Shown in pieces: positions 14,151 to 63,257 of a stretch of DNA of 64,000 nucleotides. Position 1 is the stretch's first letter. Each line of letters starts with the position of its first letter. Both the position numbers and the translations under genes were made by a program. Origin of the DNA: a virus; the IMG/VR virus record IMGVR_UViG_3300032163_000009, positions 1 through 64,000 of that record. The stretch is one strand, 5' to 3'. The notes beneath the pieces are model-generated. The model was not told where the DNA came from and ran no database searches. It saw only the letters and a program-made list of their open reading frames with translations.

Positions 14151-17100
14151 TTACGAACCCAAATTCCACACCCTCACCGTGCAATGCCAGGTCACGTTGT
14201 TGTTAAGCGCCCCAGTAATTCTTACCCGCGCCGTCGCCCCCGTCACATCGATCGTAGCATCCCAACCCGCCTGACTTTCTCCGAGAACGGTGGTTGTTGC
14301 CGAACCAACAATTGCCGTAGTCGGCGTACTGTTGCACTTGATAACGGCATAGACCACATATCCGGCGCTGTCATTGGGTGCGCCACTACTGCCGCCAGTT
14401 CTGCGCGCGGTTATCACTGCTTCAATTACACACGTCGTTGATGCGGCCACAGTGACAGTATGAAGCGTTGTTACAGTGGCATCGGTGGTCGCCGCCCGAT
14501 TCTGGTAGATGTTCTCAGTTGGATCATCATTGGTTGCCGTTGAAATATAAGTTTGAACAGCATTCCCCAGTGTGTCTTGCTGCACCTTGATCTCGCCGGT
14601 GCCTGCGCCAGTGGCTGAGCCGATATTAAGGCCACCCGTAATAATGCTGCTGCCTCGGACATCGAGCATTGCCGCTGGTGTGTCGAGTGCACCAATAACC
14701 AACCCGTCAAAAGTGCCTGCACTGGAATACAATTGTGCGCGGCTAGTGCTTGACCCGTTGCTGGTAAGATTAAAAAATGCTTGCACCGTTCCAGTTATAT
14801 TCGTGGTTTCAATAACAACGGTGGCAGATTCGGTAGCGGTCTTACTTAGTGCTTCAATAACTATCTGCGCATTTGTTCCGGCATACGTTGTCAGTACACG
14901 ACTTATATTCACTCCCCCATTGAACCAATGGACACCGTGAGTTGTTCCAGTTGCCGATGTAGCCGCGATTGATATTCCGGTAGAGTTCAGCGTAACATCT
15001 CCGCCACCTGCCGAGATTGAACCATCCGTATCCACATACGCCTGCACCGTCGTATTCCCTCGAAACTCCAACCGGTTATTCGACGTATTCCAATAAGCAT
15101 TTCCTTTCGATGCACCCACCACGCCCAGCGTCACATTGCCGCTTGTATCGACCGAAAAGTAAGTAGCGTCCACCGCGCCAGCCGATCGCGCAATAATGCT
15201 GATTGCACCGGCTGACACCTCCACGCGGCTTTGCGAATTTGCCACTTGCCCGACGATCACTTTGCCGCTCGTGTCCAGTTGCATATTGACCGTCGTATTG
15301 GTGCGGAACTGCGCCGCGCCGGCCGTGATCAAAATGTTGGACAACGACGCCCCCACCGCGCCGATGGTGATCACGCCCGCCGTGCTCATACTCATCTGCG
15401 TCGTATCCACCCCGCCGCCGCTGCGTGAAATGAAATTGACTGCGCCGGCTGTAATCTCAACCCGACTCAGTGAATTGGCGACTGTGCCCACCACAATGTT
15501 GCCGCTGGTGTCCAATGACAAATTAACGGTGGTGTTCGTGCGCAACTGCACCGCGCCCGCCGTGATGTATACATTGCTCAGTGATGCGCCGACTGCACCG
15601 ACAGTGATGTTCCCGCTGCCGTCCCACTGGCCGATCGTGGTGACGTTGTTAATAATCCGCAGCCCGTTCGTCGTGTCGAGCGTGATCGACGTTTGACCCG
15701 CTACTCCATACGAACCAAACCCTACGCCATAAGTATTTACGACATAGCCATAAGCCCCGTTTAAGTTACCGAGCCGCGTCAGCAAGGTCGTCGTGCTCCA
15801 CGGTGAACCGGCATGCGTGCCCATCGAGATATTCGGCGCAGAGCCAATCGTTCCATCGCTGCTCAACGAAATCCAAGATGAGCCACTTGCGCCGTAATCC
15901 ACCACTGCCGCACCTGCGGGAAAAGTCGCTGAACTGCCATTCATCAACGAGACATTGTAGGTGTAATACGTCACGCCGTTGCTGGTATTGATCGCATTGT
16001 CCACGCGCAACCAATTGTCTACCACGGCTGAACCGGTGAACGCCTTGAGGCGCAGAATATCACCGGCTGCGAATAAAGGCAGATGACCAGTTGGTGAATC
16101 TTTCACTTGAATCTGAGCGCCCGAACCATCTTGTAATGAACCAAGCCAGCGATGCTCGTTGTTCGTTCCACGCGGCCAGATCGTCAGGTTGTCAAATGTG
16201 TTGCTGGTATTAGTGCTATACAGGCCATGCAATGTGTAAGTCGAAGCAGGCACAGTGACAACGCCGAGCGCGACCTTAACATTATTGTAATAAAGTAACC
16301 CATTGGTGCCGTCGATAATCAACCGCAGCACCGCTCCCGCACTGTAAGTGGCCGCCGCACTGATCAAATTGGTTGTGACGCCCGCGACCACCTTATCCAA
16401 CTTCGCGTTCGTGCCATCATGATAGGCGATTAGATAGTTGCTTGTATCCTGCCAACGTGCCACGATCCCAGCCACGCCACCAGCACGAGTAACCGCCACA
16501 TCAATAATCGCGTCAGCGCACAGTGAATTAACGGTCGCAAAGCCATTGCCGCCACTCAACGTTGGACAATAAGCTGCATTCGTTGAAATTCCCCATGTGC
16601 CAACTTGTGCCGTATAGGCCAGTGCACTGATTATCTGCGAGTCCGGCCCGCTCGTTTCGGTGCTCGTCAGAGTGACCGCGCTATTCGCGCGCGCGAACGT
16701 ATCGTAGGCGCACGGCGCTGGAATATACAACTGAGTCGGGATTCGGAAATCATCAAAGGTCGCCACGCCGGTGTTGCCTTCATCCTGAATGGTTGGATAC
16801 AAATTCGCAGTGCCCGCCGACGACACCCAAACCAATGACCAATTCGTGTAAATGCCACCTTTGATGAAATACCATGCACCTGTTGATCGCAACACGACTG
16901 CCATTTGATAATCTGTGCCCGAAGACAGATTTGCACCCACCGCCTTTCCCGACGAATTGTCGCGTATGCTTAGTCCACCGCCACCACCAGAATTTTGATA
17001 AATAGTCGCAATAGGTGAAGTCGATGCAGTTTGATCACTATCCCAACCCATTGAGAGTGATCCGGCTGTCGTGAAATTATAGGTTCCTAATATGGCCAAA

Positions 17101-19328
17101 CCCGCTTGTCGCGTCCGCTGCGCATACCACAAACCGGTCACCGCTGAACCCGCTGCGATCGTGATCTTATTTGAAGCGATCGACAATCGGCTATTGGTGT
17201 CCACGACTACGCGCGTGCCGCCGCCCGGTTCTGCCGCAGTGCCGTTGACCGCACCCGCTGCCAAGTTAGTGGTGAATGAATCGCTGATGGTGTAAGCCGT
17301 GGCCGTGGTAACCGCTGCATACAAATTTCCTGCGGATAAAATCATAGCCGTGCCGCCAACCGCATGAATTTCACCGACCGTAAATACCGATGTGCGCATT
17401 TCGCCGCGCGCCGAAATGTTATTGAATTCCGCATTGCCAGTGTCGTTGATTGCCCAGCCGGTCAACCCTGATGTGAATGACGCGGATTGCACCGCATCAC
17501 CAGCGCCAAAGGCCAACACATTCGCAGCCTTGCGATTGATGGCCGCATCCGTGCCAAACACCACATTCGCCGTCGCCCCCAGATTAACCGTCGCGCCGGC
17601 CGCGCCCATATTGATCGTCGTACTTGCACCGGCGAAATTCAAAGTGGTGACCGTGGTGTTTAAGAGTGCGACCGTGGTTTGTGTGGACGTAATCGCAGAC
17701 GCACCTAATGCGAGCGTGGCATTATTGATCGTGGTTGTGCCCGTCGCCGCTCCCATGTTCAACGCCGTAGCCGCACCAGCGAAATTAACAGTCGTAGCCG
17801 TGGTATTCACCAAGGCGAAAGTCGTCGTGTTTGCCAGTAGGTTCACCAACGTCAGTTGTCCGCTTGCATCCGAAGCCAACAGCGAAGCCGCCGCGCCGGG
17901 ATTACTGGACGAAGTAATTGCGTGGCTGTGCGTTGTGCCGCTCACGCTATTGGTCGTTGAAACGGTCAAGGTGGTCGGCGTGCCGACCGCGATCACCTTG
18001 CTGGTAATCGTCAACCCCGCACCCGCCACCGCATCGGCTAACATCAGACCCGTTGAAATCTGCAAGCCCGATGTCGCGGCAAGTCGAACTTGAATGCTGT
18101 CTGCATTGATCGTCATTGATGTATCAGCCGTCGCCACATCGATCGTCCGGTTAGCCGATAGATCACCGCCGCCCGTTAAGCCTGCCCCCGCCGTAATCGT
18201 AATCGCAGCGCGTGCAATCGTTGAATCGATCGCGTGGGTGTGATTAACCACCGTGAAATCATTGGTTGATGAAGCCGTGAGCGACCCCGCGCCTAATGAA
18301 ATTGTGCCGGTAAGATCGGGCAAGGTGATGGTCTTGCCGCTGCTCGTCGGTGTCCACGTCAGTGTGCCGGTCACGCCGCCCGATTGCAGAATAATTTGAT
18401 TTGTAGTCGAGGCTAATTTCAAATGTTGCAGCGTCAGATCACCGGAAGAATCCGAAGCCAACAATGAAGCCGCTGCGCCCGGCGCGCTGGATGAAGTAAT
18501 CGCGTGACTATGAGTCGTGCCGCTGACGCTGTTGGTCGTGGCGACTGTTAAAGTGGTCGGCGTGCCGATAGCGATCACTTTACTCGTGATGGTCAGCCCG
18601 ACACCGGCCACCGTATCAGCCAACATCAAACCCGATGAAATCTGCAAACCGGAGGTCGAGGCCAATCTGACTTGCATCGAATCCGCGTTGATCGTGAGTG
18701 AAGTATCAGCGGTGACCACATCTAATACACCCGCCGTGTGAGTGAGTCCGGCACCGGCGAGAGTTGAAATCGATCGCCACGTCGCTGTCCACGGCGTAGT
18801 GCTTGAGCCGATGTACCCGTAGTCTGCTGCGCCGGAAGTGATACCGATCGAATCCGCTGCGACCGTGATCAGTGTGCCTGCCCCCACATCGATCGTTCGG
18901 TTCGCCGACAGATCTCCGCCTCCGGTTAAACCTGCACCGGACGTAATAGTGATCGCACTCCGCGCGAGCGTGCTGTCGATCGCGTGCGTGTGCGTGGAAG
19001 TTGTAACTGAATTGGTGGAGATCGAAGTGATCGAGGAGGGCGTGCCTAGTTGCAAGCCGCTGGAGATCGTCATACCGCTATTCGTGTTCAGGTTCACACC
19101 AACGCCCGACCCATCGCTCGTGATCGAGGAGTCACGCGTCGTCACCCGCACGGCTTGATAGGCGACGCGAGTGCCGCTGCCATCGGCGGAAGCATATTGA
19201 AGATGATCGTCGGCATTGAGATCGGTCAGCAGACTATGATCGTTGGTGCCGCCGCCCTGGCTGCCGCCGCTGACCGACATCATCTTCAGCCCTTCGTAAT
19301 TATCTTCGCCTCTGCCTAGTCTGCTCAT
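14151..19328 (-). CDS. tail fibre / receptor-binding protein
   Basis: 1725 aa, G/S/T/A-rich; AGAGLTGGGDLSANRT repeats; HxH motifs; after the tail-tip genes. Confidence 0.85.
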   Translation of the reverse strand: MSRLGRGEDNYEGLKMMSVSGGSQGGGTNDHSLLTDLNADDHLQYASADGSGTRVAYQAVRVTTRDSSITSDGSGVGVNLNTNSGMTISSGLQLGTPSSITSISTNSVTTSTHTHAIDSTLARSAITITSGAGLTGGGDLSANRTIDVGAGTLITVAADSIGITSGAADYGYIGSSTTPWTATWRSISTLAGAGLTHTAGVLDVVTADTSLTINADSMQVRLASTSGLQISSGLMLADTVAGVGLTITSKVIAIGTPTTLTVATTNSVSGTTHSHAITSSSAPGAAASLLASDSSGDLTLQHLKLASTTNQIILQSGGVTGTLTWTPTSSGKTITLPDLTGTISLGAGSLTASSTNDFTVVNHTHAIDSTIARAAITITAGAGLTGGGDLSANRTIDVATADTSMTINADSIQVRLAATSGLQISTGLMLADAVAGAGLTITSKVIAVGTPTTLTVSTTNSVSGTTHSHAITSSSNPGAAASLLASDASGQLTLVNLLANTTTFALVNTTATTVNFAGAATALNMGAATGTTTINNATLALGASAITSTQTTVALLNTTVTTLNFAGASTTINMGAAGATVNLGATANVVFGTDAAINRKAANVLAFGAGDAVQSASFTSGLTGWAINDTGNAEFNNISARGEMRTSVFTVGEIHAVGGTAMILSAGNLYAAVTTATAYTISDSFTTNLAAGAVNGTAAEPGGGTRVVVDTNSRLSIASNKITIAAGSAVTGLWYAQRTRQAGLAILGTYNFTTAGSLSMGWDSDQTASTSPIATIYQNSGGGGGLSIRDNSSGKAVGANLSSGTDYQMAVVLRSTGAWYFIKGGIYTNWSLVWVSSAGTANLYPTIQDEGNTGVATFDDFRIPTQLYIPAPCAYDTFARANSAVTLTSTETSGPDSQIISALAYTAQVGTWGISTNAAYCPTLSGGNGFATVNSLCADAIIDVAVTRAGGVAGIVARWQDTSNYLIAYHDGTNAKLDKVVAGVTTNLISAAATYSAGAVLRLIIDGTNGLLYYNNVKVALGVVTVPASTYTLHGLYSTNTSNTFDNLTIWPRGTNNEHRWLGSLQDGSGAQIQVKDSPTGHLPLFAAGDILRLKAFTGSAVVDNWLRVDNAINTSNGVTYYTYNVSLMNGSSATFPAGAAVVDYGASGSSWISLSSDGTIGSAPNISMGTHAGSPWSTTTLLTRLGNLNGAYGYVVNTYGVGFGSYGVAGQTSITLDTTNGLRIINNVTTIGQWDGSGNITVGAVGASLSNVYITAGAVQLRTNTTVNLSLDTSGNIVVGTVANSLSRVEITAGAVNFISRSGGGVDTTQMSMSTAGVITIGAVGASLSNILITAGAAQFRTNTTVNMQLDTSGKVIVGQVANSQSRVEVSAGAISIIARSAGAVDATYFSVDTSGNVTLGVVGASKGNAYWNTSNNRLEFRGNTTVQAYVDTDGSISAGGGDVTLNSTGISIAATSATGTTHGVHWFNGGVNISRVLTTYAGTNAQIVIEALSKTATESATVVIETTNITGTVQAFFNLTSNGSSTSRAQLYSSAGTFDGLVIGALDTPAAMLDVRGSSIITGGLNIGSATGAGTGEIKVQQDTLGNAVQTYISTATNDDPTENIYQNRAATTDATVTTLHTVTVAASTTCVIEAVITARRTGGSSGAPNDSAGYVVYAVIKCNSTPTTAIVGSATTTVLGESQAGWDATIDVTGATARVRITGALNNNVTWHCTVRVWNLGS

Positions 19329-26082: not shown

Positions 26083-27096
26083 TTAGACCGTGTTGGTGTT
26101 GGTCACGACCGTTACGGCCAGCGCGTTGGCAAGATCGGTCGAGATCAAACCGTGAAAGAGAGCCTGATGTAGATTGTTGTTTTGCGATTCAGCATTCAGC
26201 GGCACCACTTTCTCCCACTGGCCCCAAATGTTGGTGGTCAGCGCGTGCGTGGAGTTGGTGTTGACAATGGCATCGCCCAACATTTTCAGTTGGATGGCGC
26301 GGAAAGTCTGCGCGTCACATTCATCGTAAATGACACCGGCTGCGGCATTGCCTTCCAGCGTCAAGGTCAGCATGGCTTGCACAAAGCCTTCGCCGTAAGA
26401 CGAGAAATACAGATTGGCGTCGCCAAAGAATTTCGGATGGTTGCCGTTCAGGATTTCCAGTTCAAAGCCGCGCAAGGTCGCCGTGACTTCGGTGTTGCCG
26501 GCTGCGGCCCACGTGCTGTCGTCATACAGTCGCGTTTTCTTGGCGCTCATGCTGGTCACGGCCGCTGCGACTAAGGACGCGGTAAAATTTTGCTTGGCAA
26601 CTTGCCGCGCAAAATAATTGGCCTCGATCTTGATCGGACTTTCGCTGCCGTCTTGCGCAATCTCCCCTGAGATTTTGATGTCCTTGAACATGCAATATTC
26701 TCGGACATACGCCTGCATGTCGTCACCGGCTTCCAGCGTGAACGTGTTGGGATTGTTAGCCGCGTTCAACGTCGGCGAGAACGTCCACAGGTAATCTGTT
26801 TGATTGGCCGTCACCGGCGCGGCTGTGACGCCGCCTTTCAAACCGTGCTTGAAGAAAAACGGCAACACTTGAAAATAGGCGTGGGGAATGCCGATGCTGT
26901 CTTCCACGAACAATTCCGATTTCAAACTGCGCCCGGACTCGATGCGCACGCCGAGATTGTCAGCGGGATAAACAGGCTTCCAATCCATCGGGATCGGCTT
27001 CTGCTCCGCCCCAATTAAGATTTTAGTCGCAGGCACAATTGTCCCGCGCGTTGCCTCAGGCCCATATTGATACTTAGAGAAAATTCTTTCACCCAT
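26083..27096 (-). CDS. major tail tube protein
   Basis: Position; YGPEATRGT, TFTLEAGD and GFELEI..G features. Confidence 0.8.
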   Translation of the reverse strand: MGERIFSKYQYGPEATRGTIVPATKILIGAEQKPIPMDWKPVYPADNLGVRIESGRSLKSELFVEDSIGIPHAYFQVLPFFFKHGLKGGVTAAPVTANQTDYLWTFSPTLNAANNPNTFTLEAGDDMQAYVREYCMFKDIKISGEIAQDGSESPIKIEANYFARQVAKQNFTASLVAAAVTSMSAKKTRLYDDSTWAAAGNTEVTATLRGFELEILNGNHPKFFGDANLYFSSYGEGFVQAMLTLTLEGNAAAGVIYDECDAQTFRAIQLKMLGDAIVNTNSTHALTTNIWGQWEKVVPLNAESQNNNLHQALFHGLISTDLANALAVTVVTNTNTV

Positions 27097-27129
27097 GATC
27101 ATTTACTCCTTCATTGAACAGGCTCAGCG

Positions 27130-30786: not shown

Positions 30787-32151
30787 TTAGGAGCGCTTGA
30801 TATAATGGATGCCGCTGGTGTGAGTGGCGGTGCTGCGCACGCCACGGCAAGCTACGGCAATGCGGAACGAAGCCACCATCACGAACTGACGCTTCTGAAT
30901 CAAGCGATCCATTTCGATGAGCAACTGGCGGCGGAAGCCGACGCGCCAATCGTTGCGATGATAGATGGCGATCGTGCCATACACATCATTGGTCGCAGGT
31001 GACGTGGTGGTGTATTTGCCGTCCGTGTCCGTTTCGGCCATCGCGCCGGTCACAATCAACGGGATGTTGGCATACTTCGCCAGCTCGCCGCTGAGGATCG
31101 TGGCGTTGGGACCGAACTTGTCCATGGTGGCGACATTGGGCAGCCCCAACATGCCGATATAGGTTTTGGCATCCATTGCCATTGCCAGTTGTCCGACGTT
31201 CGCGCCGTAGCGCCCCATGCGCCCTAAACCCGCCAGCGTCAAGCTGTCGGTCAAGGTGGTGTTCAACGCCACGCCTTGCGCGGTGTTGTCCACGAGGAAC
31301 AAGTGACGGATGCCGTCCTGCCCGTTGGACAGATAGTAGGAATCGTCGGGCGGATTCGCGTCGTCACTGTTGATGTTGCCGGTGTTGGCGTCCGTCGAAT
31401 CGGCGTTCAAGATGAAGCGATCGATCTGTTCCGCGCCGTCTGCCACCAGTGAGGCGCGCAGTGACGGCAGGACAGCGATGATCGAATCTTCATCGAGATC
31501 GTAACTCCAATCGACTTCGTACACCTGCTCAGTGCTGGTCAGCGTCGCCTTGGCGGTCGTCGCATTCTGCGGTGTGATCGCCGTGTTCTGCGTGCCTTTG
31601 CGCCACGCGCCAGTGACCCAGCCTAACGGGATGTCGAACGGGTCGGTCGGCATGGGAATGACAGAGATCGTGCTGGCAACCTTCGCGGCCAAGAACATAT
31701 CCTGCCACAGTTCAGCCGCCATGCCCGTTGGCACAAACTCATCGCCGCTGCCAGGCGTAACGGTGTCCAGCGCCTTGTCCACAACGGCCTTTAAGTCTTT
31801 TGACGGCGGCTTCACGCTGTCGCGTCGAACTTGACCGGCGCGTTCCAACAGCCAGTGCGTGAAGATCAAGTCATCGACCTTCTGGCCGTCGAACTTGCCG
31901 CCTTGCACCAACCCCTTGCTGCGGGCTTGTGCGCCGGGCAGCCCGACTAGCTCGCCGCGCCGAATCGGGCGGTTGGCTTGCTGCTCGCTCAGTCGTTTTT
32001 GAACTTGGGCATCGACTAAGCCGGTTAAATGATCGGCCAGTCGATCGATGTCCAAGGTAGCCTTGTCGGTTTGATGATCTTTCACCGTCGCCGTTAAGGC
32101 GGCTACTTCCGTTTTGATTTCTTCCAACGTGGTGGGATTTTGAGCACTCAT
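30787..32151 (-). CDS. major capsid protein (HK97 fold)
   Basis: KALDT..G.G.EFVPT, LDEDSII and EQIDRFILNAD; N-terminal delta-like domain. Confidence 0.92.
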   Translation of the reverse strand: MSAQNPTTLEEIKTEVAALTATVKDHQTDKATLDIDRLADHLTGLVDAQVQKRLSEQQANRPIRRGELVGLPGAQARSKGLVQGGKFDGQKVDDLIFTHWLLERAGQVRRDSVKPPSKDLKAVVDKALDTVTPGSGDEFVPTGMAAELWQDMFLAAKVASTISVIPMPTDPFDIPLGWVTGAWRKGTQNTAITPQNATTAKATLTSTEQVYEVDWSYDLDEDSIIAVLPSLRASLVADGAEQIDRFILNADSTDANTGNINSDDANPPDDSYYLSNGQDGIRHLFLVDNTAQGVALNTTLTDSLTLAGLGRMGRYGANVGQLAMAMDAKTYIGMLGLPNVATMDKFGPNATILSGELAKYANIPLIVTGAMAETDTDGKYTTTSPATNDVYGTIAIYHRNDWRVGFRRQLLIEMDRLIQKRQFVMVASFRIAVACRGVRSTATHTSGIHYIKRS

Positions 32152-57188: not shown

Positions 57189-58715
57189 ATGTTATCAACA
57201 AAATCTGCTCGGCAGGCAGGCGTCCCCCTCATTGTCGTTGAAACCAACGACAGCGCCCAATCGGTTAAAACATTTCGCGCGGAGTTAAATGGTCGGGCTG
57301 ACACCAGTCCGATGATTTCGCACGATCTAGGCAGCGGCGTGCAAGCCTACAACGACGTTGGCGGAGAATTGCTGCAAACCTTGTGCGGCGACGAAGATCG
57401 CACCGGCATGAATCCAGCCACGTTCTTAATCAATGTAGCGAAGCTGCGCAGCCTGGAAGTTGAGCAACCGGTCTATGTGTTGCTGTTCAATCCGCAGTTG
57501 TATTGGAACTTGGAGTCCGGCATCACCATTCAGCAAGCGGTCTGGAATCTGCGCGACGTACTCAAGCCCTCGAAATCTCAACTGCTCATGTTCGTGCCGA
57601 CTGGCACGCAATTGCCCGACGTGTTGAAGTCGGACGTGCTGGTGTTGAAAGACACGCTGCCCACGCCTGCGGAGTTGACCGAGATCATCGAACGCACGCT
57701 GAACAGCGCAGTCAAAGCCGGATTGGATGCCAAGAAAATCCCTGATCGCGTGACCATTCTCAAGACACTGACGGGCTTGCCTGCGTTTCCAGCGGAGCAG
57801 GTGTTAGCGATGTCCATTAGTCGTGAGGGCGTTGACACGAAAAATTTGTGGGAGCGCAAGCGCCAAGCGATCGAACAAACGCCCGGCCTCAGCGTGTGGC
57901 GCGGCGGCGAATCGTTTAACGACATTGGCGGCTACGAGAACGTCAAAGAGTTCATGCGGCGCATTATCGGCGGCCGTGACGCGCCGAACGCGATCGTTTA
58001 TCAAGACGAGATGGAAAAGTTTTTCGGCGCGAACGTGACCGGCGACAATACCGGTGTCACGCAAGATCAGTTAGGCGTGCAATTGGCTTACATGCAAGAC
58101 ACCAACGCGCTCGGCTGCATGTTCCTCGGTGTGCGCGGCAGTGGCAAGAGCGCGATTGCCAAAGCGATCGGCAACGAAGCTGGCATCCCCACGATCGCGC
58201 TAGACTTGGGCGGCATGAAGGCGGGCATCGTGGGATCTTCGGAAGCGCGGCTGCGCAGCGCATTCGATGTCGTTAGTTCAATCTCGCAGGGCCGTGTGTT
58301 GTTCATTGCCACCTGCAACTCGGTCGCCACGCTGCCACCGGAATTGCGACGGCGTTACAACTACGGCACTTTCTTCTTCGACATCCCCGACAGCGCCTCG
58401 CGCAAAAAGATTTGGGACATTTACAAAAAGAAGTATCCTGAACTGGCGAAAGAAAAAACGCCATCGGACGAAGGCTGGACGGGCAGCGAGATTCGAAACT
58501 GCGTGATGATTGCGTGGAACTTGAAGATCACGCTGCTGGACGCGGCCAAGTACATTGTGCCGGTGACCGTTAGCGACGCAGTGGCGACCACGCGCCTGTT
58601 AGAGAGCGCCAACAATCGGTATTTGGATGCGTCGAGCGCGGGACTATTCCAATACAAGTCGAAGTCAAAGAGCAGCGCAGCCAATTCGGGCGAGCGCAAA
58701 ATGGAGTTGGATTAA
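57189..58715 (+). CDS. Ycf46-like AAA+ ATPase with permuted Walker B/Walker A order
   Basis: FNDIGG, then IVYQDEMEK, then GVRGSGKS, VGSSE and IATCN..LPPELRR. Confidence 0.88.
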   Translation: MLSTKSARQAGVPLIVVETNDSAQSVKTFRAELNGRADTSPMISHDLGSGVQAYNDVGGELLQTLCGDEDRTGMNPATFLINVAKLRSLEVEQPVYVLLFNPQLYWNLESGITIQQAVWNLRDVLKPSKSQLLMFVPTGTQLPDVLKSDVLVLKDTLPTPAELTEIIERTLNSAVKAGLDAKKIPDRVTILKTLTGLPAFPAEQVLAMSISREGVDTKNLWERKRQAIEQTPGLSVWRGGESFNDIGGYENVKEFMRRIIGGRDAPNAIVYQDEMEKFFGANVTGDNTGVTQDQLGVQLAYMQDTNALGCMFLGVRGSGKSAIAKAIGNEAGIPTIALDLGGMKAGIVGSSEARLRSAFDVVSSISQGRVLFIATCNSVATLPPELRRRYNYGTFFFDIPDSASRKKIWDIYKKKYPELAKEKTPSDEGWTGSEIRNCVMIAWNLKITLLDAAKYIVPVTVSDAVATTRLLESANNRYLDASSAGLFQYKSKSKSSAANSGERKMELD

Positions 58716-58716
58716 C

Positions 58717-58989
58717 ATGCCTTGCGATACAGTTCAAATCACGGGAATTCAATTAGGCAAAGTCGATGCCGCGCTGCTGGAAGCAGCGATGGCGAGTTTG
58801 GACTATCAACGCTATCAATGGAAGTTGATCGGCGAAGAAGTGCAAGTGCGCGGCCAGCGGCTGACCGATGAAGATATTTCAGCGGTCAAGGTGGCGTATT
58901 CGCAGCAGGTGGTGAAGCAGACGGCTAATAAGTTTGGCTGGCAGTTGAAGCAGATTAGCCCGACGCAGTTTGTGGCGGTGAAGCGATGA
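58717..58989 (+). CDS. DUF1257-like protein
   Basis: LL.AA...L; AYSQQVV...A.KFGW; follows the AAA gene. Confidence 0.7.
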   Translation: MPCDTVQITGIQLGKVDAALLEAAMASLDYQRYQWKLIGEEVQVRGQRLTDEDISAVKVAYSQQVVKQTANKFGWQLKQISPTQFVAVKR

Positions 58990-59198
58990 ACGGCGACGAA
59001 ATCAAGATTGAGATTCTCGCAGACGGCACGATCAAGATCGAAACCGATCGCATCGGCCCCGCCAATCACTTGAGCGCCGAACGCTTCATCAAAGAAGCGC
59101 AGCGCTTGGCAGGCGGTGCGACTAAAATCACCCGCAAGGTTGGCAAATTCTTGCGCGGTCAACACGATCATTCACATACTCAAACCGGAGGGCATTGA
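58986..59198 (+). CDS. DUF2997-like protein
   Basis: IKIEILADGTIKIET; context. Confidence 0.7.
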   Translation: MNGDEIKIEILADGTIKIETDRIGPANHLSAERFIKEAQRLAGGATKITRKVGKFLRGQHDHSHTQTGGH

Positions 59199-59202
59199 GA
59201 GC

Positions 59203-60228
59203 ATGGCAAACAAAACAGCAACACCTAAGAAATTGAGTCGGCAGGTTATCCGCAGCGTGGAGCAGGCTTTTGGCGAAGCCGACAAACCAAGCGGCAGTCA
59301 AACGATCGGTCTCGACGTGTTAGCGAACGCGGCGTTATTCACGTTCACTTTTCACCGCTGGGGCAATCGGCGCAAAGCCGACACCACGCCCGAAGGCGCG
59401 ATCGATGACGAAGACAAGGCGAAGAAGCGCGTGCGATCGACGCTGCGCTTAATTGAGAGCGAAGCGTACGATACCATCAATAGTTATATCAACGAAGCGC
59501 GGCAGTGGCTATTGGGGCGGTGTATGCCGTCCTACATGGTCAAGGGCGTGTTTTTCGTTAAGTTGGATCAAGTCGAAACGTTTGAGGCGAAGATCGCGGA
59601 AGTGAAAGAATGGATGTCCAAGACCGGCTTGCCGGATTTGCTGAGCGACTATGAGCGCGCCATTGATCAAGCGGAAGTAGACTTGCGGGCGGTGTCTCGC
59701 ACACTGCGCAGCGCGGAGTTATTCAATCGCGCCGATTATCCCAAGCCAAACGACTTGCGGTCGCGCTATTATGTGACGCACAACTGGATGAGCTTCGGCG
59801 TGCCGCAGAACTTGCCGCTGAAGATACGCGAGCAGGAAGAGACGAAGATCAAAGCCAAGTTCGAAGACGCAGCCGCCGAAATTACCGAAGCGCTGCGGGC
59901 GGCTTTCAACGAACTGCTCACCACGGCGACGGCGCGACTGACCGCCAACCCCAACGGCAAGAAGATGATCATTCGATCGGCGCTGGTCGACAACTTCAAC
60001 GAGTTCATCGAGACGTTCAACGCGCGGAACTTGACCGACGATCGACAGTTGGAACAACTGGTTGAGCAAGCGCGAGCATTGATGAAGGGGGTCAGCGCCG
60101 AAACACTGCGCACGCGCCCGACGGTGCGGCGCAGCGTGGCCGCGCAGTTGTTAAACTTGCAAGCGGCCGCAAAAGAACTGGTCATCGAGCGACCGGATCG
60201 AAAATTCGACTTTGATGATGAGGAATAA
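59203..60228 (+). CDS. DUF3150-like protein
   Basis: WG..RK, FNRADYP, F...NLTDD.QL..LV.QAR. Confidence 0.65.
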   Translation: MANKTATPKKLSRQVIRSVEQAFGEADKPSGSQTIGLDVLANAALFTFTFHRWGNRRKADTTPEGAIDDEDKAKKRVRSTLRLIESEAYDTINSYINEARQWLLGRCMPSYMVKGVFFVKLDQVETFEAKIAEVKEWMSKTGLPDLLSDYERAIDQAEVDLRAVSRTLRSAELFNRADYPKPNDLRSRYYVTHNWMSFGVPQNLPLKIREQEETKIKAKFEDAAAEITEALRAAFNELLTTATARLTANPNGKKMIIRSALVDNFNEFIETFNARNLTDDRQLEQLVEQARALMKGVSAETLRTRPTVRRSVAAQLLNLQAAAKELVIERPDRKFDFDDEE

Positions 60229-60230
60229 AC

Positions 60231-60581
60231 ATGCCAACTGTCAGTGACGCCAAACAAGATGAAGTCTGGCAGCACTTGATGCAGTTGCCTGCGTCACACC
60301 GCCCTAACGGTGTGACGCAGGCCAGGCTGGAACGCATCAAGGCGCAGGTCTACCAATACCCGTTCTTCTGGCAAGATGTCGTCGTGCGACATGGCTTGCT
60401 CGATCGAACGCCGGAGCAACTGAAAGCCGCTGATCTCGCGGCCTACGAACACATGCTCGGCAATGCGTGGGGCATGATAGCGACGCTGGTGCAGCAAATG
60501 CTGCTCGCGCCGGAGCAGCCCGAGGTGATTAAGGAGCAGCATGAGCAAAGAGATAGTGCGCAGTGTGCGGCTTTGGAATAA
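60231..60581 (+). CDS. hypothetical protein
   Basis: GAGGA RBS. Confidence 0.6.
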   Translation: MPTVSDAKQDEVWQHLMQLPASHRPNGVTQARLERIKAQVYQYPFFWQDVVVRHGLLDRTPEQLKAADLAAYEHMLGNAWGMIATLVQQMLLAPEQPEVIKEQHEQRDSAQCAALE

Positions 60582-61092
60582 CACCGATCGGCACGACAAG
60601 GTGTACGAGATCGATCTGGTGCAGCCTGACGGATCGAAAAATCTGTATGAAGTGCAATTCCGTTACGGGCGGCGCGGCACCAATTTGCAAGTCGGTGTGA
60701 AGGTGCGCGACGTGTCGCTGCTGAAAGCCGAAGCCGTTTACGCTGACCTGTTAGCAACAAAGCGCGGGCGCGGATATGAAATCTTGGCTTACCAATCGGT
60801 ATCCAGCCTCGGAGAAGCCCGCGCTGAGCGAGTTGAATGGACAGGCGAAACGCTGGCAGATAAATCCGAGAAAGCCGCACGCGAAATCTTGGCACAACGG
60901 CAGCGTGAGAGAATCACTGAAATAAACCGGCGCGGAATCAAGCGCTCATTAAGCGACGAAGACATTCTTCTGCGGCGCGTCACGCAAACAACGCAGGCCA
61001 AGCCAGCCGCCAAGCCACCCGCAGGCAAATCGAACACGACTAAACCGATCGGGCCGACCGAGCGGAAATTTACTTTTGACGACGAGGAGTAG
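60541..61092 (+). CDS. WGR domain protein
   Basis: HDKVYEI, V.FRYGRRG, K..RGY. Confidence 0.85.
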   Translation: MSKEIVRSVRLWNNTDRHDKVYEIDLVQPDGSKNLYEVQFRYGRRGTNLQVGVKVRDVSLLKAEAVYADLLATKRGRGYEILAYQSVSSLGEARAERVEWTGETLADKSEKAAREILAQRQRERITEINRRGIKRSLSDEDILLRRVTQTTQAKPAAKPPAGKSNTTKPIGPTERKFTFDDEE

Positions 61093-61095
61093 GAC

Positions 61096-61590
61096 ATGGA
61101 TCAAGAACAATTGATAGAAGAAATTAGAGTGTTGGCACTGGCCCGCGAAGAACTCGCCAAAGCCAAAGATAAAGCCAAAGCGCAGCGCGAGGCGTTCGAT
61201 CAATCGCTTGAGCGGCAGGCAATGCTTGCACAGCAAACCATACTGGAAGCCAGTGTGACAAACATCGAAGCCGAGTTGCGCAATGAAATGGCGCGGCACT
61301 ATCAAGCCACCGGCTTCAAGTCGTTGGCGGATGGCGCGTTAGGGATTCGCGTGTCGAAGGCGTTTCACTATACGCCCGACGAAGCGACGGCGTGGGCCAA
61401 GTCAAACGCGCCGGTGCTGCTGGTGTTGGATCAAAAGGCGTTCGAGAAAATGATCGGCAGTCTGGAGCACAAGCCCGCTTTCGTGATCGAGACGCCGGAC
61501 GTGAAGGCGACGATCGCTACCGATTTGAGCAAGTATCTTAAACCCGAAGGAGGTGAGGCTGGCACGAACACGCAAGCAACGAGCGACTAA
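61096..61590 (+). CDS. Gp157/Gam-like coiled-coil protein
   Basis: Coiled coil; G.KSL..G.LGIR; LDQKAFEK. Confidence 0.55.
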   Translation: MDQEQLIEEIRVLALAREELAKAKDKAKAQREAFDQSLERQAMLAQQTILEASVTNIEAELRNEMARHYQATGFKSLADGALGIRVSKAFHYTPDEATAWAKSNAPVLLVLDQKAFEKMIGSLEHKPAFVIETPDVKATIATDLSKYLKPEGGEAGTNTQATSD

Positions 61591-61612: not shown

Positions 61613-62014
61613 ATGGCAAGAACTTATGTGCAAGACAGAACCAAAAAGCGTCGCGTGAGTGTGTGGCAAGACGACGGTCGCACGGCCTCAGCGCATGCCG
61701 CCCAGTGGTGTGTGTGTGGTTACTGTTGGGGGCCGGTGGTGGAACGCTACGACGAGGAATTGAAGCGTTGGTATGCGTCCTGTTCGAATGAACTGCATCG
61801 CGGCTTTCACCACTTCGTCTTTGTCGAGCGCACGAAATCGGCGCACGCGCTGGAGGTGCTGGAAGTCAAGCACTTCTATTCGCGGACGCCGCTGGCCGCT
61901 GCGCTCGGCTTTGAACCACCGCTGACCGGCGACGCGCTTCAAGCCCGATTGAAGCAGAACAAACAAGTATTGGGCCAAAGTGATCTCAACCTAGGAGCAA
62001 ATATAAATGAGTAA
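61613..62014 (+). CDS. hypothetical zinc-binding protein
   Basis: CGYC and C....H. Confidence 0.6.
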   Translation: MARTYVQDRTKKRRVSVWQDDGRTASAHAAQWCVCGYCWGPVVERYDEELKRWYASCSNELHRGFHHFVFVERTKSAHALEVLEVKHFYSRTPLAAALGFEPPLTGDALQARLKQNKQVLGQSDLNLGANINE

Positions 62015-63257
62015 AGGACCCGTAAGAATGGCGCTGCGCGGAGAACGGCAAGTCGGTGATCCGTTTCCAACGTTCGCTAATATCCGCAAAGGCGCGCCTA
62101 AGATCGATCGTGTAGATGGGGCCAGCGGCCGCGGGTATCAAGTGGTCGGGCCGAACTTGAAGCACTTTCGATTCACCGCGTTCAATGAAACGAACGAGCG
62201 ACTGGTCGCGTTCATCAAGTCGTTGGGCGATGAACCCAATCACATCCCGTTCTACTTTCCAGCGCGGGCGATCGACAACAACTTCATGTTCCGCAATGAA
62301 GGCTATCGCGGCAGCGTGATGATTCACCGCTGCATGCCGGACGAATCGCGCTTGGTGCTAACGGACTTGAATCCCAAGACGTTTGCGCAGCGCGTCAAGC
62401 AAGGCAAAAGTGTCGAGACTGGGCAGCCGGTGCAGTGCGAATGTCCTGAGCAGCCGTTGTATCTGGATGGCAAACAGAAGCCGGTCAATTGCAGTCCGGT
62501 GGTGCGAATGCGAATCATGATTCCAGGCCAAGGCGAGATCGGCGAGCCCGGCTGCTTTCAGGTGTTGAGCACGTCGGCGTATGACGGTATCTACCTCACG
62601 CGCCAACTTGAAGGCTTCTACGAACTGTTGACGATGAACGCGCAGATGGAAGCCAACGGGCTGCGCGGCGTGCCGTTCTACTTGAATCGCTCGATGCGCC
62701 CGATCAAATATCGGGACGACAGCGGCAAGCTGATCAGCCGCGAAGAGTCTTTGCTGTGGCTGGAAATCGATCCCAAGTTCGGCGCGACGCTGCTCGATCG
62801 CATGGTGCAAGAAACACTGGCCGCTGTGAAAGATCAGCCGGTGTTGATGCCTGCTTCAATCGCCGACGAACTGCCCGAAGGGGGCGGACACACCGACAAC
62901 GAAGAACTGTTGAGCATCGTTAGCGGCAGCACAGACAGCGCCGACAGTGCGCCTGATCTGGATTTGACGACGCCGCCCGCTGAGCCGCAACAAACCAAGC
63001 CGCCGACCACGCAAGCGGTCGCAGTGCGCAGTCCGCAGCCCCCGCCCGTCGAAACGGCCTATGCCGCTGATGACTTACCGGGCAACGGTCAAGGCTTTCT
63101 CGACTGGCTCAAGGAAAAGAAGTTCAAAGGGGAGTGGGTGGTCAAGGTGTTAGGCATGGATGCCAAGAAGTATCAGCGCGAGCTGCAAGTCGATTGGCGC
63201 ACGATCGCGCAAATCTTAGTCGACGCGAAAGCGAAGGAAGCGACCACGCCGAAGTAA
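62007..63257 (+). CDS. Gp3-like / recombination-directionality-factor-like protein
   Basis: FP....IRKGAPK, HFRF, ST.AYD and GVPF.L.R; recalled family resemblance. Confidence 0.65.
   Translation: MSKGPVRMALRGERQVGDPFPTFANIRKGAPKIDRVDGASGRGYQVVGPNLKHFRFTAFNETNERLVAFIKSLGDEPNHIPFYFPARAIDNNFMFRNEGYRGSVMIHRCMPDESRLVLTDLNPKTFAQRVKQGKSVETGQPVQCECPEQPLYLDGKQKPVNCSPVVRMRIMIPGQGEIGEPGCFQVLSTSAYDGIYLTRQLEGFYELLTMNAQMEANGLRGVPFYLNRSMRPIKYRDDSGKLISREESLLWLEIDPKFGATLLDRMVQETLAAVKDQPVLMPASIADELPEGGGHTDNEELLSIVSGSTDSADSAPDLDLTTPPAEPQQTKPPTTQAVAVRSPQPPPVETAYAADDLPGNGQGFLDWLKEKKFKGEWVVKVLGMDAKKYQRELQVDWRTIAQILVDAKAKEATTPK

Follow-up and report, generated by a model that had tools for sequence, protein, structure and literature searches.

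Introduction

The order of the nucleotide-binding motifs, Walker A followed by Walker B, is to our knowledge treated as fixed in the P-loop ATPases of the ASCE class, and it is built into domain models such as Pfam AAA. We know of no described AAA+ protein in which Walker A does not precede Walker B. Here we analyze a 64,000-nucleotide stretch of viral DNA (the window; positions 1 to 64,000 of IMG/VR virus record IMGVR_UViG_3300032163_000009), in which a gene on the + strand at 57189..58715 encodes a 508-codon AAA+ protein, P0001, with its Walker B ahead of its Walker A. A search of the full-text literature, in which subscription journals were not covered, returned no description of an AAA+ protein with this order. 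P0001 very probably works as an AAA+ ATPase of the classic clade, belongs with the Ycf46-like ATPases borne by phages, and has its nucleotide-binding core in a non-standard order.

Several described systems can be compared with P0001. The phage-borne Ycf46-like ATPases of normal order, such as L135_8 (IMGVR_UViG_3300047160_036174), HJ05 WEV89366.1, JP1_048, SM1_026, and DLP_5 gp086, also combine a degenerate N-terminal AAA-like domain with a classic AAA domain, carry the motifs DIGG, VGxSE, DEhEK...GD.SG...TWMQ[DE], ATxN, LPPEL[RK]R, and WTGAEI, and have DUF1257, DUF2997, and DUF3150 partners. However, their Walker A stands before Walker B, and the swapped proteins form a clade of their own. 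Cdc48/p97/VAT and Rix7/NVL resemble P0001 in fold, as the P0001 model superposes on their D1-D2 (Z 19-20, ~400 residues) and has sensor 1 and paired Arg fingers. The lid of classic-clade AAA proteins carries a GAE motif in place of the sensor-2 Arg, and the P0001 lid does the same. Unlike Cdc48/p97/VAT, P0001 has a different order of Walker modules, an N-terminal domain free of nucleotide-binding motifs, and different partners, and the aromatic position of pore loop 1 is usually Leu or Ile in the swapped family.

The gene set of cyanobacterial and plastid Ycf46, Ycf35, and DUF2997 recurs here as AAA, DUF1257, and DUF2997, a likeness judged by gene set and labels alone; the phage module differs in adding DUF3150 and WGR proteins, and in the swapped core of the phage lineage. 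A DUF2997-ycf35 gene cluster is reported to be conserved in cyanobacteria (PMC4284462). Labels on relatives of P0001, given by the source or automatically, include 'SpoVK/Ycf46/Vps4 family', and a cluster automatically named 'ycf46' is among the nearest ESM Atlas clusters. A further comparison is offered by the circularly permuted P-loop GTPases (YlqF/RsgA/YqeH), which belong to the TRAFAC class and in which the whole domain is permuted to the order G4-G5-G1-G2-G3 with new termini. They provide a natural precedent for altering the motif order while keeping the three-dimensional active site, whereas in P0001, an ASCE/AAA+ protein, the domain begins and ends as usual and the permutation is confined to an internal segment.

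Walker B precedes Walker A in P0001

In chain order, the motifs of P0001 are DIGG (245), IVYQDEMEK (269-277, with D273/E274), AYMQD (300-304), the Walker A GVRGSGKS (314-321), VGSSEARLR (348-356), VLFIATCN (370-377), and LPPELRRR (382-389), and IVYQDEMEK is followed by a Gly/Asp-rich loop and a helix that ends in AYMQD. Chance is far from accounting for such a set of motifs. The linear order Walker A - pore loop 1 - Walker B - sensor 1 is absent, since residues 273-274 come before 314-321. The translation confirms the motif order DIGG - Walker B - Walker A - sensor 1 proposed in an earlier reading made from the letters of this DNA (the sequence-only reading).

The inversion was located by comparison with proteins of normal order. 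A hidden Markov model (HMM) built from four annotated phage ATPases of normal order (those of Aeromonas phage HJ05, Agrobacterium phage JP1, Pseudomonas phage SM1, and Stenotrophomonas phage DLP_5) matches native P0001 in four pieces, with residues 5-256, 269-307, 309-367, and 369-416 aligning to model positions 14-265, 346-384, 286-344, and 385-433, respectively. When residues 268-309 and 310-369 are exchanged in silico, a single collinear match to positions 14-433 is obtained, and the score rises from 108.3 bits, the value of the whole native protein, to 145.9 bits. Local alignment to L135_8, the closest normal-order relative, gives the same arrangement: residues 200-260 of P0001 map to 210-271, block B (269-304) to 341-378 (z 7.1 vs shuffles), block A (311-366) to 283-338 (28/56 identical, 50%; z 25), and residues 370-480 to 383-495 (z 38). 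A plain BLASTP comparison of the two proteins returns one long gapped alignment that masks the swap, which the block-wise local alignment reveals. Furthermore, when the sequences in the PDB were searched with a profile built on 120 members of the family, solved VAT was matched out of order in both of its ATPase domains, with profile 300-351 on chain 44-95 and profile 255-307 on chain 98-151 in D1, and profile 299-353 on 320-374 and profile 256-307 on 376-429 in D2. A collinear full-length alignment to canonical AAA, an outcome that the sequence-only reading had set against itself, does not exist. The central claim of that reading, that two adjacent blocks have changed places with the catalytic residues kept, is borne out by the HMM pieces, by the mappings to L135_8 and VAT, and by the conservation counts given below.

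P0001 has a two-domain design of ~500 residues, in which a single classic AAA domain comes after an N-terminal domain that is non-catalytic, and its parts, all on the + strand, can be laid out as follows. Residues 1-231 (57189..57881) form an AAA+-like alpha/beta domain that lacks Walker motifs and aligns to the N-terminal region of the normal-order phage relatives; judged by the model, it is a degenerate second AAA-like domain. This domain alone resembles AAA+ folds of the clamp-loader/ORC type (Z 8-10.6; 2gno_A, Z 10.6 over 172 residues), and in superpositions of the entire protein it falls on D1 of p97/Cdc48 (Z 19-20). Residues 232-267 (57882..57989) hold the linker, DIGG, and helix 0, are collinear with the normal-order HMM up to position 265, and close with an 'APN/APR' loop that precedes strand 1 in normal relatives. 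Block B, residues 268-309 (57990..58115; HMM 346-384), follows ahead of Walker A and contains strand 3 with Walker B D273/E274, the pore-loop-2 region, and helix 3, which ends in MQD. Block A, residues 310-369 (58116..58295; HMM 286-344), contains strand 1, Walker A G314-S321, helix 1, strand 2, pore loop 1 (343-349), and helix 2, and matches Pfam AAA at profile positions 2-55 when isolated. Residues 370-480 (58296..58628; HMM 385-433) comprise strand 4 with sensor 1 N377, the Arg fingers R388/R389, strand 5, and a helical lid that carries a WTG[AS]EI motif. The low-confidence C-terminal tail ending RKMELD (58629..58712; predicted local distance difference test score, pLDDT, 49-55) includes R503, which is nearly invariant across the family. 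The whole protein scores 44.5 bits against Pfam AAA (PF00004; cut-off 21.2), its best stretch covering positions 2-63 of 131.

DIGG and helix 0 ahead of the blocks, and strand 4, sensor 1, the Arg fingers, strand 5, and the lid behind them, are left in place. The adjacent blocks that have traded places are the units [strand1-helix1-strand2-helix2] and [strand3-helix3], and in formal terms an internal segment, running from strand 1 to helix 3, has been circularly permuted. A whole-domain permutation, in which new termini appear and the old ones are joined, was rejected, as helix 0/DIGG still opens the domain and strand 4-lid still closes it; the permuted part of P0001 is the internal segment 268-369 only. 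The description 'naturally rewired (non-circularly permuted) P-loop fold' in the sequence-only reading therefore stands as to the rewiring, while 'non-circularly' is refined to a circular permutation confined to an internal segment.

The inverted order is shared by a large phage family

The inverted order is conserved throughout a family with more than 1000 full-length homologs. A word-indexed search returned 1027 full-length homologs, with 42-54% identity to the query among the 120 listed, and when 1.84 billion cluster representatives were searched exhaustively with HMMER, 1055 clusters (50% identity) scored E<=1e-30, out of 5346 matches overall. Alignments of 15 and then 120 homologs are collinear with P0001, and the 120 aligned members share the order hhhhDEhEK ... 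TWMQD ... GPPGAAKS ... VGxSE ... ATCN ... LPPELRRR. In a motif scan, Walker B came before Walker A in 252/252 proteins in which both motifs were detectable. Block-specific HMMs likewise assigned the order 'BA' to 321/321 family members, as against 'AB' for 66 normal-order phage relatives, with 14 more distant ones giving block A only. The search for homologs of the same order that the sequence-only reading had suggested is thereby answered by more than 1000 relatives, and these sequences indicate that the swap is a trait of a whole old phage lineage, beyond P0001 alone.

Family members were found on 132 IMG/VR contigs, and the family gene occurs at 158 places in GTDB species genomes, mostly of Acidobacteriota (Bryobacterales, Terriglobia) and often in several copies per genome. 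Database labels for the members read 'AAA family ATPase' or 'hypothetical protein'. One member, gp103 (XOB77284.1) of Tunturiibacter phage Tunturi_3, comes from a cultured phage with a known host and is thus experimentally tractable. It has 37% identity over 95% of the query, a Walker B at residue 284 that precedes a GVPGVSKS P-loop, and DUF1257-, DUF2997-, and DUF3150-like genes downstream, and its record annotation is only 'ATPase'.

Two observations concern the hosts of the family. Acidobacteriota (Bryobacterales, Solibacter, Terriglobia) carry the swapped ATPase in strong excess and with several copies in a genome bin, for example four loci each in JALHNH01, CAWHRX01, and JAIEPW01, some of them on Mb-sized contigs; such multi-copy loci suggest prophages or another multi-copy integrated element. 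In addition, a relative with 48% identity (P0017) is labeled by NCBI as belonging to a Thermoplasmata archaeon metagenome-assembled genome, on a 59.9-kb contig; either an archaeal virus or the mis-binning of a phage contig could account for this label.

Predicted fold and co-evolving contacts

Structure prediction, proposed as a check in the sequence-only reading, gave a confident model across all junctions. The AlphaFold2 model of P0001, built from the 120-sequence alignment, has a pLDDT of 93.7 and a predicted template modeling score (pTM) of 0.87, and its confidence drops only at 281-290, in the pore-loop-2 region, and in the C-terminal tail. The modeled C-terminal domain has five strands (268-272, 308-314, 335-338, 370-376, and 394-397), and the AAA+ alpha/beta core and helical lid are both present in the predicted structure. 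Compared as a whole, the model fits the D1-D2 tandem found in p97/Cdc48, Rix7, and NVL (Z 15-20, ~400 residues). Taken by itself, its AAA domain superposes on p97 D2, Vps4, and spastin at Z 14-15.7 with a root-mean-square deviation (rmsd) of 2.5-3.4 A over ~200-216 residues, for example on p97 D2 3cf0_A (Z 15.0, rmsd 2.5 A, 203/247 residues, within 232-478) and Vps4 6bmf_B (Z 15.7, 213 residues), and it superposes on FtsH too. The ~40 residues left unaligned would correspond to one block, because an aligner that keeps the chain order must drop one of the two. Neither VIA-align over 48,161 PDB representatives nor the Foldseek top 1000 contained a single-domain match of more than 216 AAA-domain residues or turned up a solved structure of the same order, an outcome that does not show such structures to be nonexistent.

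Where the moved strand lies can be approached through residue co-evolution, for which mean-field direct coupling analysis (DCA) was applied to 321 sequences (effective number of sequences, Meff, 266). Strand 1 is coupled to strand 5 (312-397) and to strand 4 (311-372), whereas the moved strand 3 is coupled to strand 4 (270-372 and 275-374). Helix 3 is coupled to strand 2 (293/294-338 and 303-335), and there are eight helix 3-helix 2 pairs and eight helix 3-pore loop 1 pairs. The pair 268-366, at overall rank 3, spans the point at which helix 2 and strand 3 were once covalently joined, and residues 246/249 in the DIGG region co-evolve with 318/319 of the P-loop. No coupling of the moved strand to strand 1 appeared in this analysis, and helix 3 had a single weak pair to strand 5. 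The normal AAA+ core sheet has the order 5-1-4-3-2, and the couplings are compatible with it. The moved strand appears to have strands 4 and 2 on its two sides, the place it takes in normal AAA+ proteins.

The model and the couplings are most economically read as an unchanged architecture whose connections are new. On this reading, the usual parallel sheet 5-1-4-3-2 would be reassembled by rewired strands, the chain running helix0 - strand3 - helix3 - strand1 - helix1 - strand2 - helix2 - strand4 - helix4 - strand5 - lid. Three connections would be new, namely helix 0 to strand 3, helix 3 to strand 1 over strand 4, and helix 2 to strand 4 over strand 3, and we infer that all three are parallel, right-handed crossovers. 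Because the strands appear to form the usual sheet, Lys320/Ser321, Asp273/Glu274, Asn377, and Arg388/Arg389 would meet around ATP, just as their counterparts do in any AAA protein.

Alternatively, the relocated strand could sit elsewhere in the sheet, for example at an edge, with the active site rebuilt in a new geometry. This would accord with a linker from DIGG to the first strand that is ~10 residues shorter than in normal relatives and yet must span two strands more, as well as with some top-ranking DCA pairs that are otherwise unexplained, such as helix 3-lid, and with a strand order that was deduced indirectly. In DCA, however, strand 4 is the partner of the moved strand, strand 2 and helix 2 are the partners of its helix, all of them normal neighbors, and no pair joins the strand itself to strand 1; the pair 268-366 retains the old helix 2/strand 3 contact; and the remainder of the domain superposes on p97 D2 at 2.5 A, leaving exactly the slot of strand 3 and helix 3. 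We consider such a new topology improbable and the usual sheet with rewired connections the better account.

Conservation of the active site

The catalytic residues are conserved in the swapped family. Among 321 diverse members (P0001 numbering), the Walker A residues G314 and K320 are each kept in 320/321, and G317 and S/T321 in 321/321. Walker B E274 is invariant (321/321), and D273 is kept in 318/321, the other 3 having Glu. The second region of homology, with the sensor-1 polar residue and the Arg fingers, is present in P0001, and in the family N377 of sensor 1 and the Arg finger R389 are kept in 321/321 and the Arg finger R388 in 309/321. Conservation extends to G349 of the pore loop (321/321) and to G432 in the WTGAEI motif of the lid (318/321). 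P0001 fits the Walker A consensus GxxGxGK[ST] with GVRGSGKS and the Walker B consensus hhhhDE with IVYQ-D273-E274. It is atypical in its details: GVRGSGKS stands against GPPGAAKS in the family, with V315/R316 for the usual P-P, and Q272 occupies a position that is I/V/L/M in the family.

A different account of the upstream hhhhDE would be that it is a leftover, or a part of the N-terminal domain or linker, and that the C-terminal AAA domain binds ATP without hydrolyzing it. The N-terminal domain is itself a degenerate AAA-like fold, and Pfam AAA recognizes P0001 only over positions 2-63 and fails to recognize block B alone, as would be expected if Walker B were such a remnant. Nevertheless, block B follows DIGG/helix 0 and aligns to the segment from Walker B to helix 3 of normal relatives and of solved VAT, co-evolution links it to the C-terminal core, and its residues D273/E274, K277, D286, and G289 are 96-100% conserved over the 321 members, which is unexpected for a relic. 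Moreover, only ~3 residues remain between helix 2 and strand 4, so that there is no other Walker B. Set beside a functional Walker B moved as part of a block, a relic is very improbable, even more so than a new sheet topology.

Inteins are found in five relatives of P0001 from outside the window (P0146, P0239, P0224, P0128, and P0193). All five have canonical intein ends, and some inteins of the family contain LAGLIDADG or HNH homing endonucleases. Two are inserted inside the P-loop (GPPG/C, the slash marking the site), one between the Walker A Lys and Ser (GK/S), and two before the sensor-1 Cys (AT/CN). Homing inteins typically occupy the most conserved catalytic motifs, and their presence in Walker A and sensor 1 therefore fits a functional site.

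Assembly support and origin of the swap

In the Logan re-assembly of a sediment metagenome run, positions 57700-58500 are unchanged, within one 35-kb contig at ~11x depth and with no joints; this run may be the source sample, so that the result shows the agreement of a second assembler only. One DNA sequencing run contains the stretch, and no RNA run is listed. Misassembly at the junctions, raised in the sequence-only reading as a way in which the swap could prove spurious, did not occur: the junctions are unchanged in the second assembly, and the B-then-A order of more than 1000 relatives, each assembled independently, excludes an error of assembly. The idea that a chimeric contig or a local rearrangement made the swap in this window only can hence be dismissed as having next to no chance of being right, for although the window is a metagenome-assembled viral contig whose sole run may be its own source, the order recurs in every aligned relative across hundreds of independent samples, a cultured phage, and bacterial genome bins, the second assembler reproduced it, and an open reading frame and a confident predicted structure run across all three junctions.

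The swapped proteins have a single origin. A maximum-likelihood tree was built from 45 swapped members, with their blocks re-ordered to align homologous columns, 66 phage relatives of normal order, and 4 AAA proteins that are distant. A branch with a Shimodaira-Hasegawa-like approximate likelihood ratio test (SH-aLRT) support of 100 separates all 45 swapped rows from the others. Among the rows of normal order, L135_8, L137/139-141, L146, and L151 lie closest to them (joint support 94), and L135_8 shares family-specific motifs with the swapped clade, for example WTGAEIRACC...AAKNVVPV. A single old rearrangement inside the phage-borne Ycf46-like ATPases would be the simplest history. In the ancestor, a 42-residue strand3-helix3 unit with Walker B and pore loop 2 would have traded places with a 60-residue strand1-helix1-strand2-helix2 unit with Walker A and pore loop 1. 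Tandem duplication followed by loss of the outer halves is the usual route for permutations, and the likeliest course here would be a tandem duplication of the segment from strand 1 to helix 3 with subsequent loss of both outer halves.

Weight of the evidence and proposed function

Several points weigh against P0001 being a working ATPase with a rewired but otherwise normal core. First, no A-B-A or B-A-B intermediate of a duplication was found among 401 proteins (80 of normal order and 321 swapped, of the 5346 matches), and the proposed genetic route is thus offered as an unsupported conjecture. Second, the sheet order was deduced from DCA, at an Meff of ~266 and with some noise pairs, and from the aligned-length argument; AlphaFold and DCA also use the same co-variation and so are not fully independent. 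Third, isolated block B of P0001 has no Pfam AAA match at E<=1. The sequence-only reading had expected two out-of-order Pfam AAA matches, which fails for P0001 itself and holds for a more typical member, P0224, whose residues 263-309 match Pfam AAA positions 58-106. Fourth, given V315/R316 and Q272 near the catalytic residues, the activity of P0001 itself seems less certain than that of its family. Finally, ATP hydrolysis and the formation of a hexameric ring are predictions from the sequence and the model. Taken together, the swapped family is real, old, and widespread, and the structural interpretation is well supported but unproven.

In function, P0001 would be a substrate-threading or remodeling motor that works with DUF1257, DUF2997, and DUF3150 partners from an early region of the phage genome. 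Our best guess is a ring-shaped, ATP-driven remodeler or unfoldase acting with or on these partners in early infection, since the protein has a classic-clade fold, pore loops, and Arg fingers.

We suggest only tentatively, and regard it as rather doubtful, that this is the first described natural AAA+ (ASCE P-loop) lineage with an inverted Walker order, an old and successful internal circular permutation with possibly altered allostery. If it is so, helix 3, whose MQD resembles a motif of inter-subunit signaling, would feed strand 1 and the P-loop rather than strand 4 and sensor 1, and helix 2 behind pore loop 1 would lead into sensor 1. Because the covalent couplings of helix 3 and helix 2 would be changed in this way, the allosteric link between nucleotide state, pore loops, and neighboring subunits may differ from that in all AAA motors studied, and the family would be a natural experiment on how topology affects motor mechanism and folding. 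If the reading of the core holds, the AAA+ fold tolerates rewiring of its central strands. Pairs of swapped and normal proteins, such as P0001 or Tunturi_3 gp103 with L135_8 or HJ05 gp65, would then provide a natural comparison for folding, allostery, and mechanism. The swap would also explain why profile tools annotate these proteins partially, with half-domain matches and 'hypothetical protein' labels. In addition, a module of AAA, DUF1257, DUF2997, and DUF3150 genes would be marked out that is widespread in phages and Acidobacteriota genomes.

The phage record and the neighboring genes

The window belongs to a linear virus record of 77,735 bp whose completeness is estimated at 73%. Genes for a tape-measure protein, portal, large terminase, and head protease identify an uncultured tailed phage, and no tRNA genes were found. 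A 1725-residue open reading frame beside the tail genes (14151-19328, - strand) has no PHROG match at 1e-5; two others without a PHROG match, of 338 residues (26083-27102) and 453 residues (30787-32151), may be major structural proteins.

Downstream of the ATPase gene and on the same + strand lie a DUF1257 (Ycf35)-like gene of 90 residues (58717..58989), a DUF2997-like gene of 70 residues (58986..59198), a DUF3150-like gene of 341 residues (59203..60228), and a gene for a WGR-domain protein (60541..61092; Pfam WGR 2.9e-6). The first three have no direct match in Pfam, PHROG, or NCBIfam and were assigned indirectly, though solidly, through their relatives. In profile-profile alignment with hhalign, the family of the DUF1257-like gene matches a DUF1257-positive family (probability 94.8%, E 5e-8) and that of the DUF2997-like gene a DUF2997-positive family (94.9%, E 4e-8), with low scores in the cross-controls, and relatives in other loci match Pfam DUF2997 (best 1.6e-15) and DUF1257 (5.7e-6) directly. 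The linkage of AAA, DUF1257, and DUF2997 genes is thereby present in the window, through remote members (hhalign ~95%). Six cluster members of the DUF3150-like gene match Pfam DUF3150 (best 1.1e-7). Its model has a pLDDT of 88, and a fold search against the PDB gave no match at E<=0.001. In a word-based search the partner genes had only 8 homologs.

The DUF3150-like gene occurs in 62/77 related viral loci, always on the same strand as the ATPase and mostly 0-2.7 kb downstream, and DUF1257, DUF2997, and DUF3150 neighbors are found in swapped and normal-order loci alike. We found no paper that assigns a function to the phage AAA/DUF1257/DUF2997/DUF3150 module in the full-text literature, subscription journals being uncovered.

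Further downstream, 61096-61590 has a weak Mu Gam-like match (E 0.008, under the Pfam cut-off), and 62007-63257 encodes a Gp3-like 'recombination directionality factor-like' domain (5.8e-10); these neighbors would place the module in a DNA-metabolism or early region. Other small genes accompany the module in related viral loci and were not seen in the window, namely a ~108-residue protein with a conserved RASHVEP motif in 15/77 loci (e.g. L012:8434-8772) and a small SWIM-zinc-finger-like protein in 5 loci. In Tunturi_3, ORF96 (L001:9597-10631) is annotated as 'HNH endonuclease' and matches the DUF3150-like family HMM at E 7e-88; this label is probably an error.

The C-terminal tails of three module proteins resemble one another: ...GERKMELD in the ATPase (58695-58712), ...DRKFDFDDEE in the DUF3150-like protein (60196-60225), and ...ERKFTFDDEE in the WGR protein (61060-61089). 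Across relatives, a tail of the form R-[RK]-hydrophobic-x-hydrophobic is 3-6 times commoner at the C-terminus than in random internal windows, and the common tail may be a shared docking peptide.

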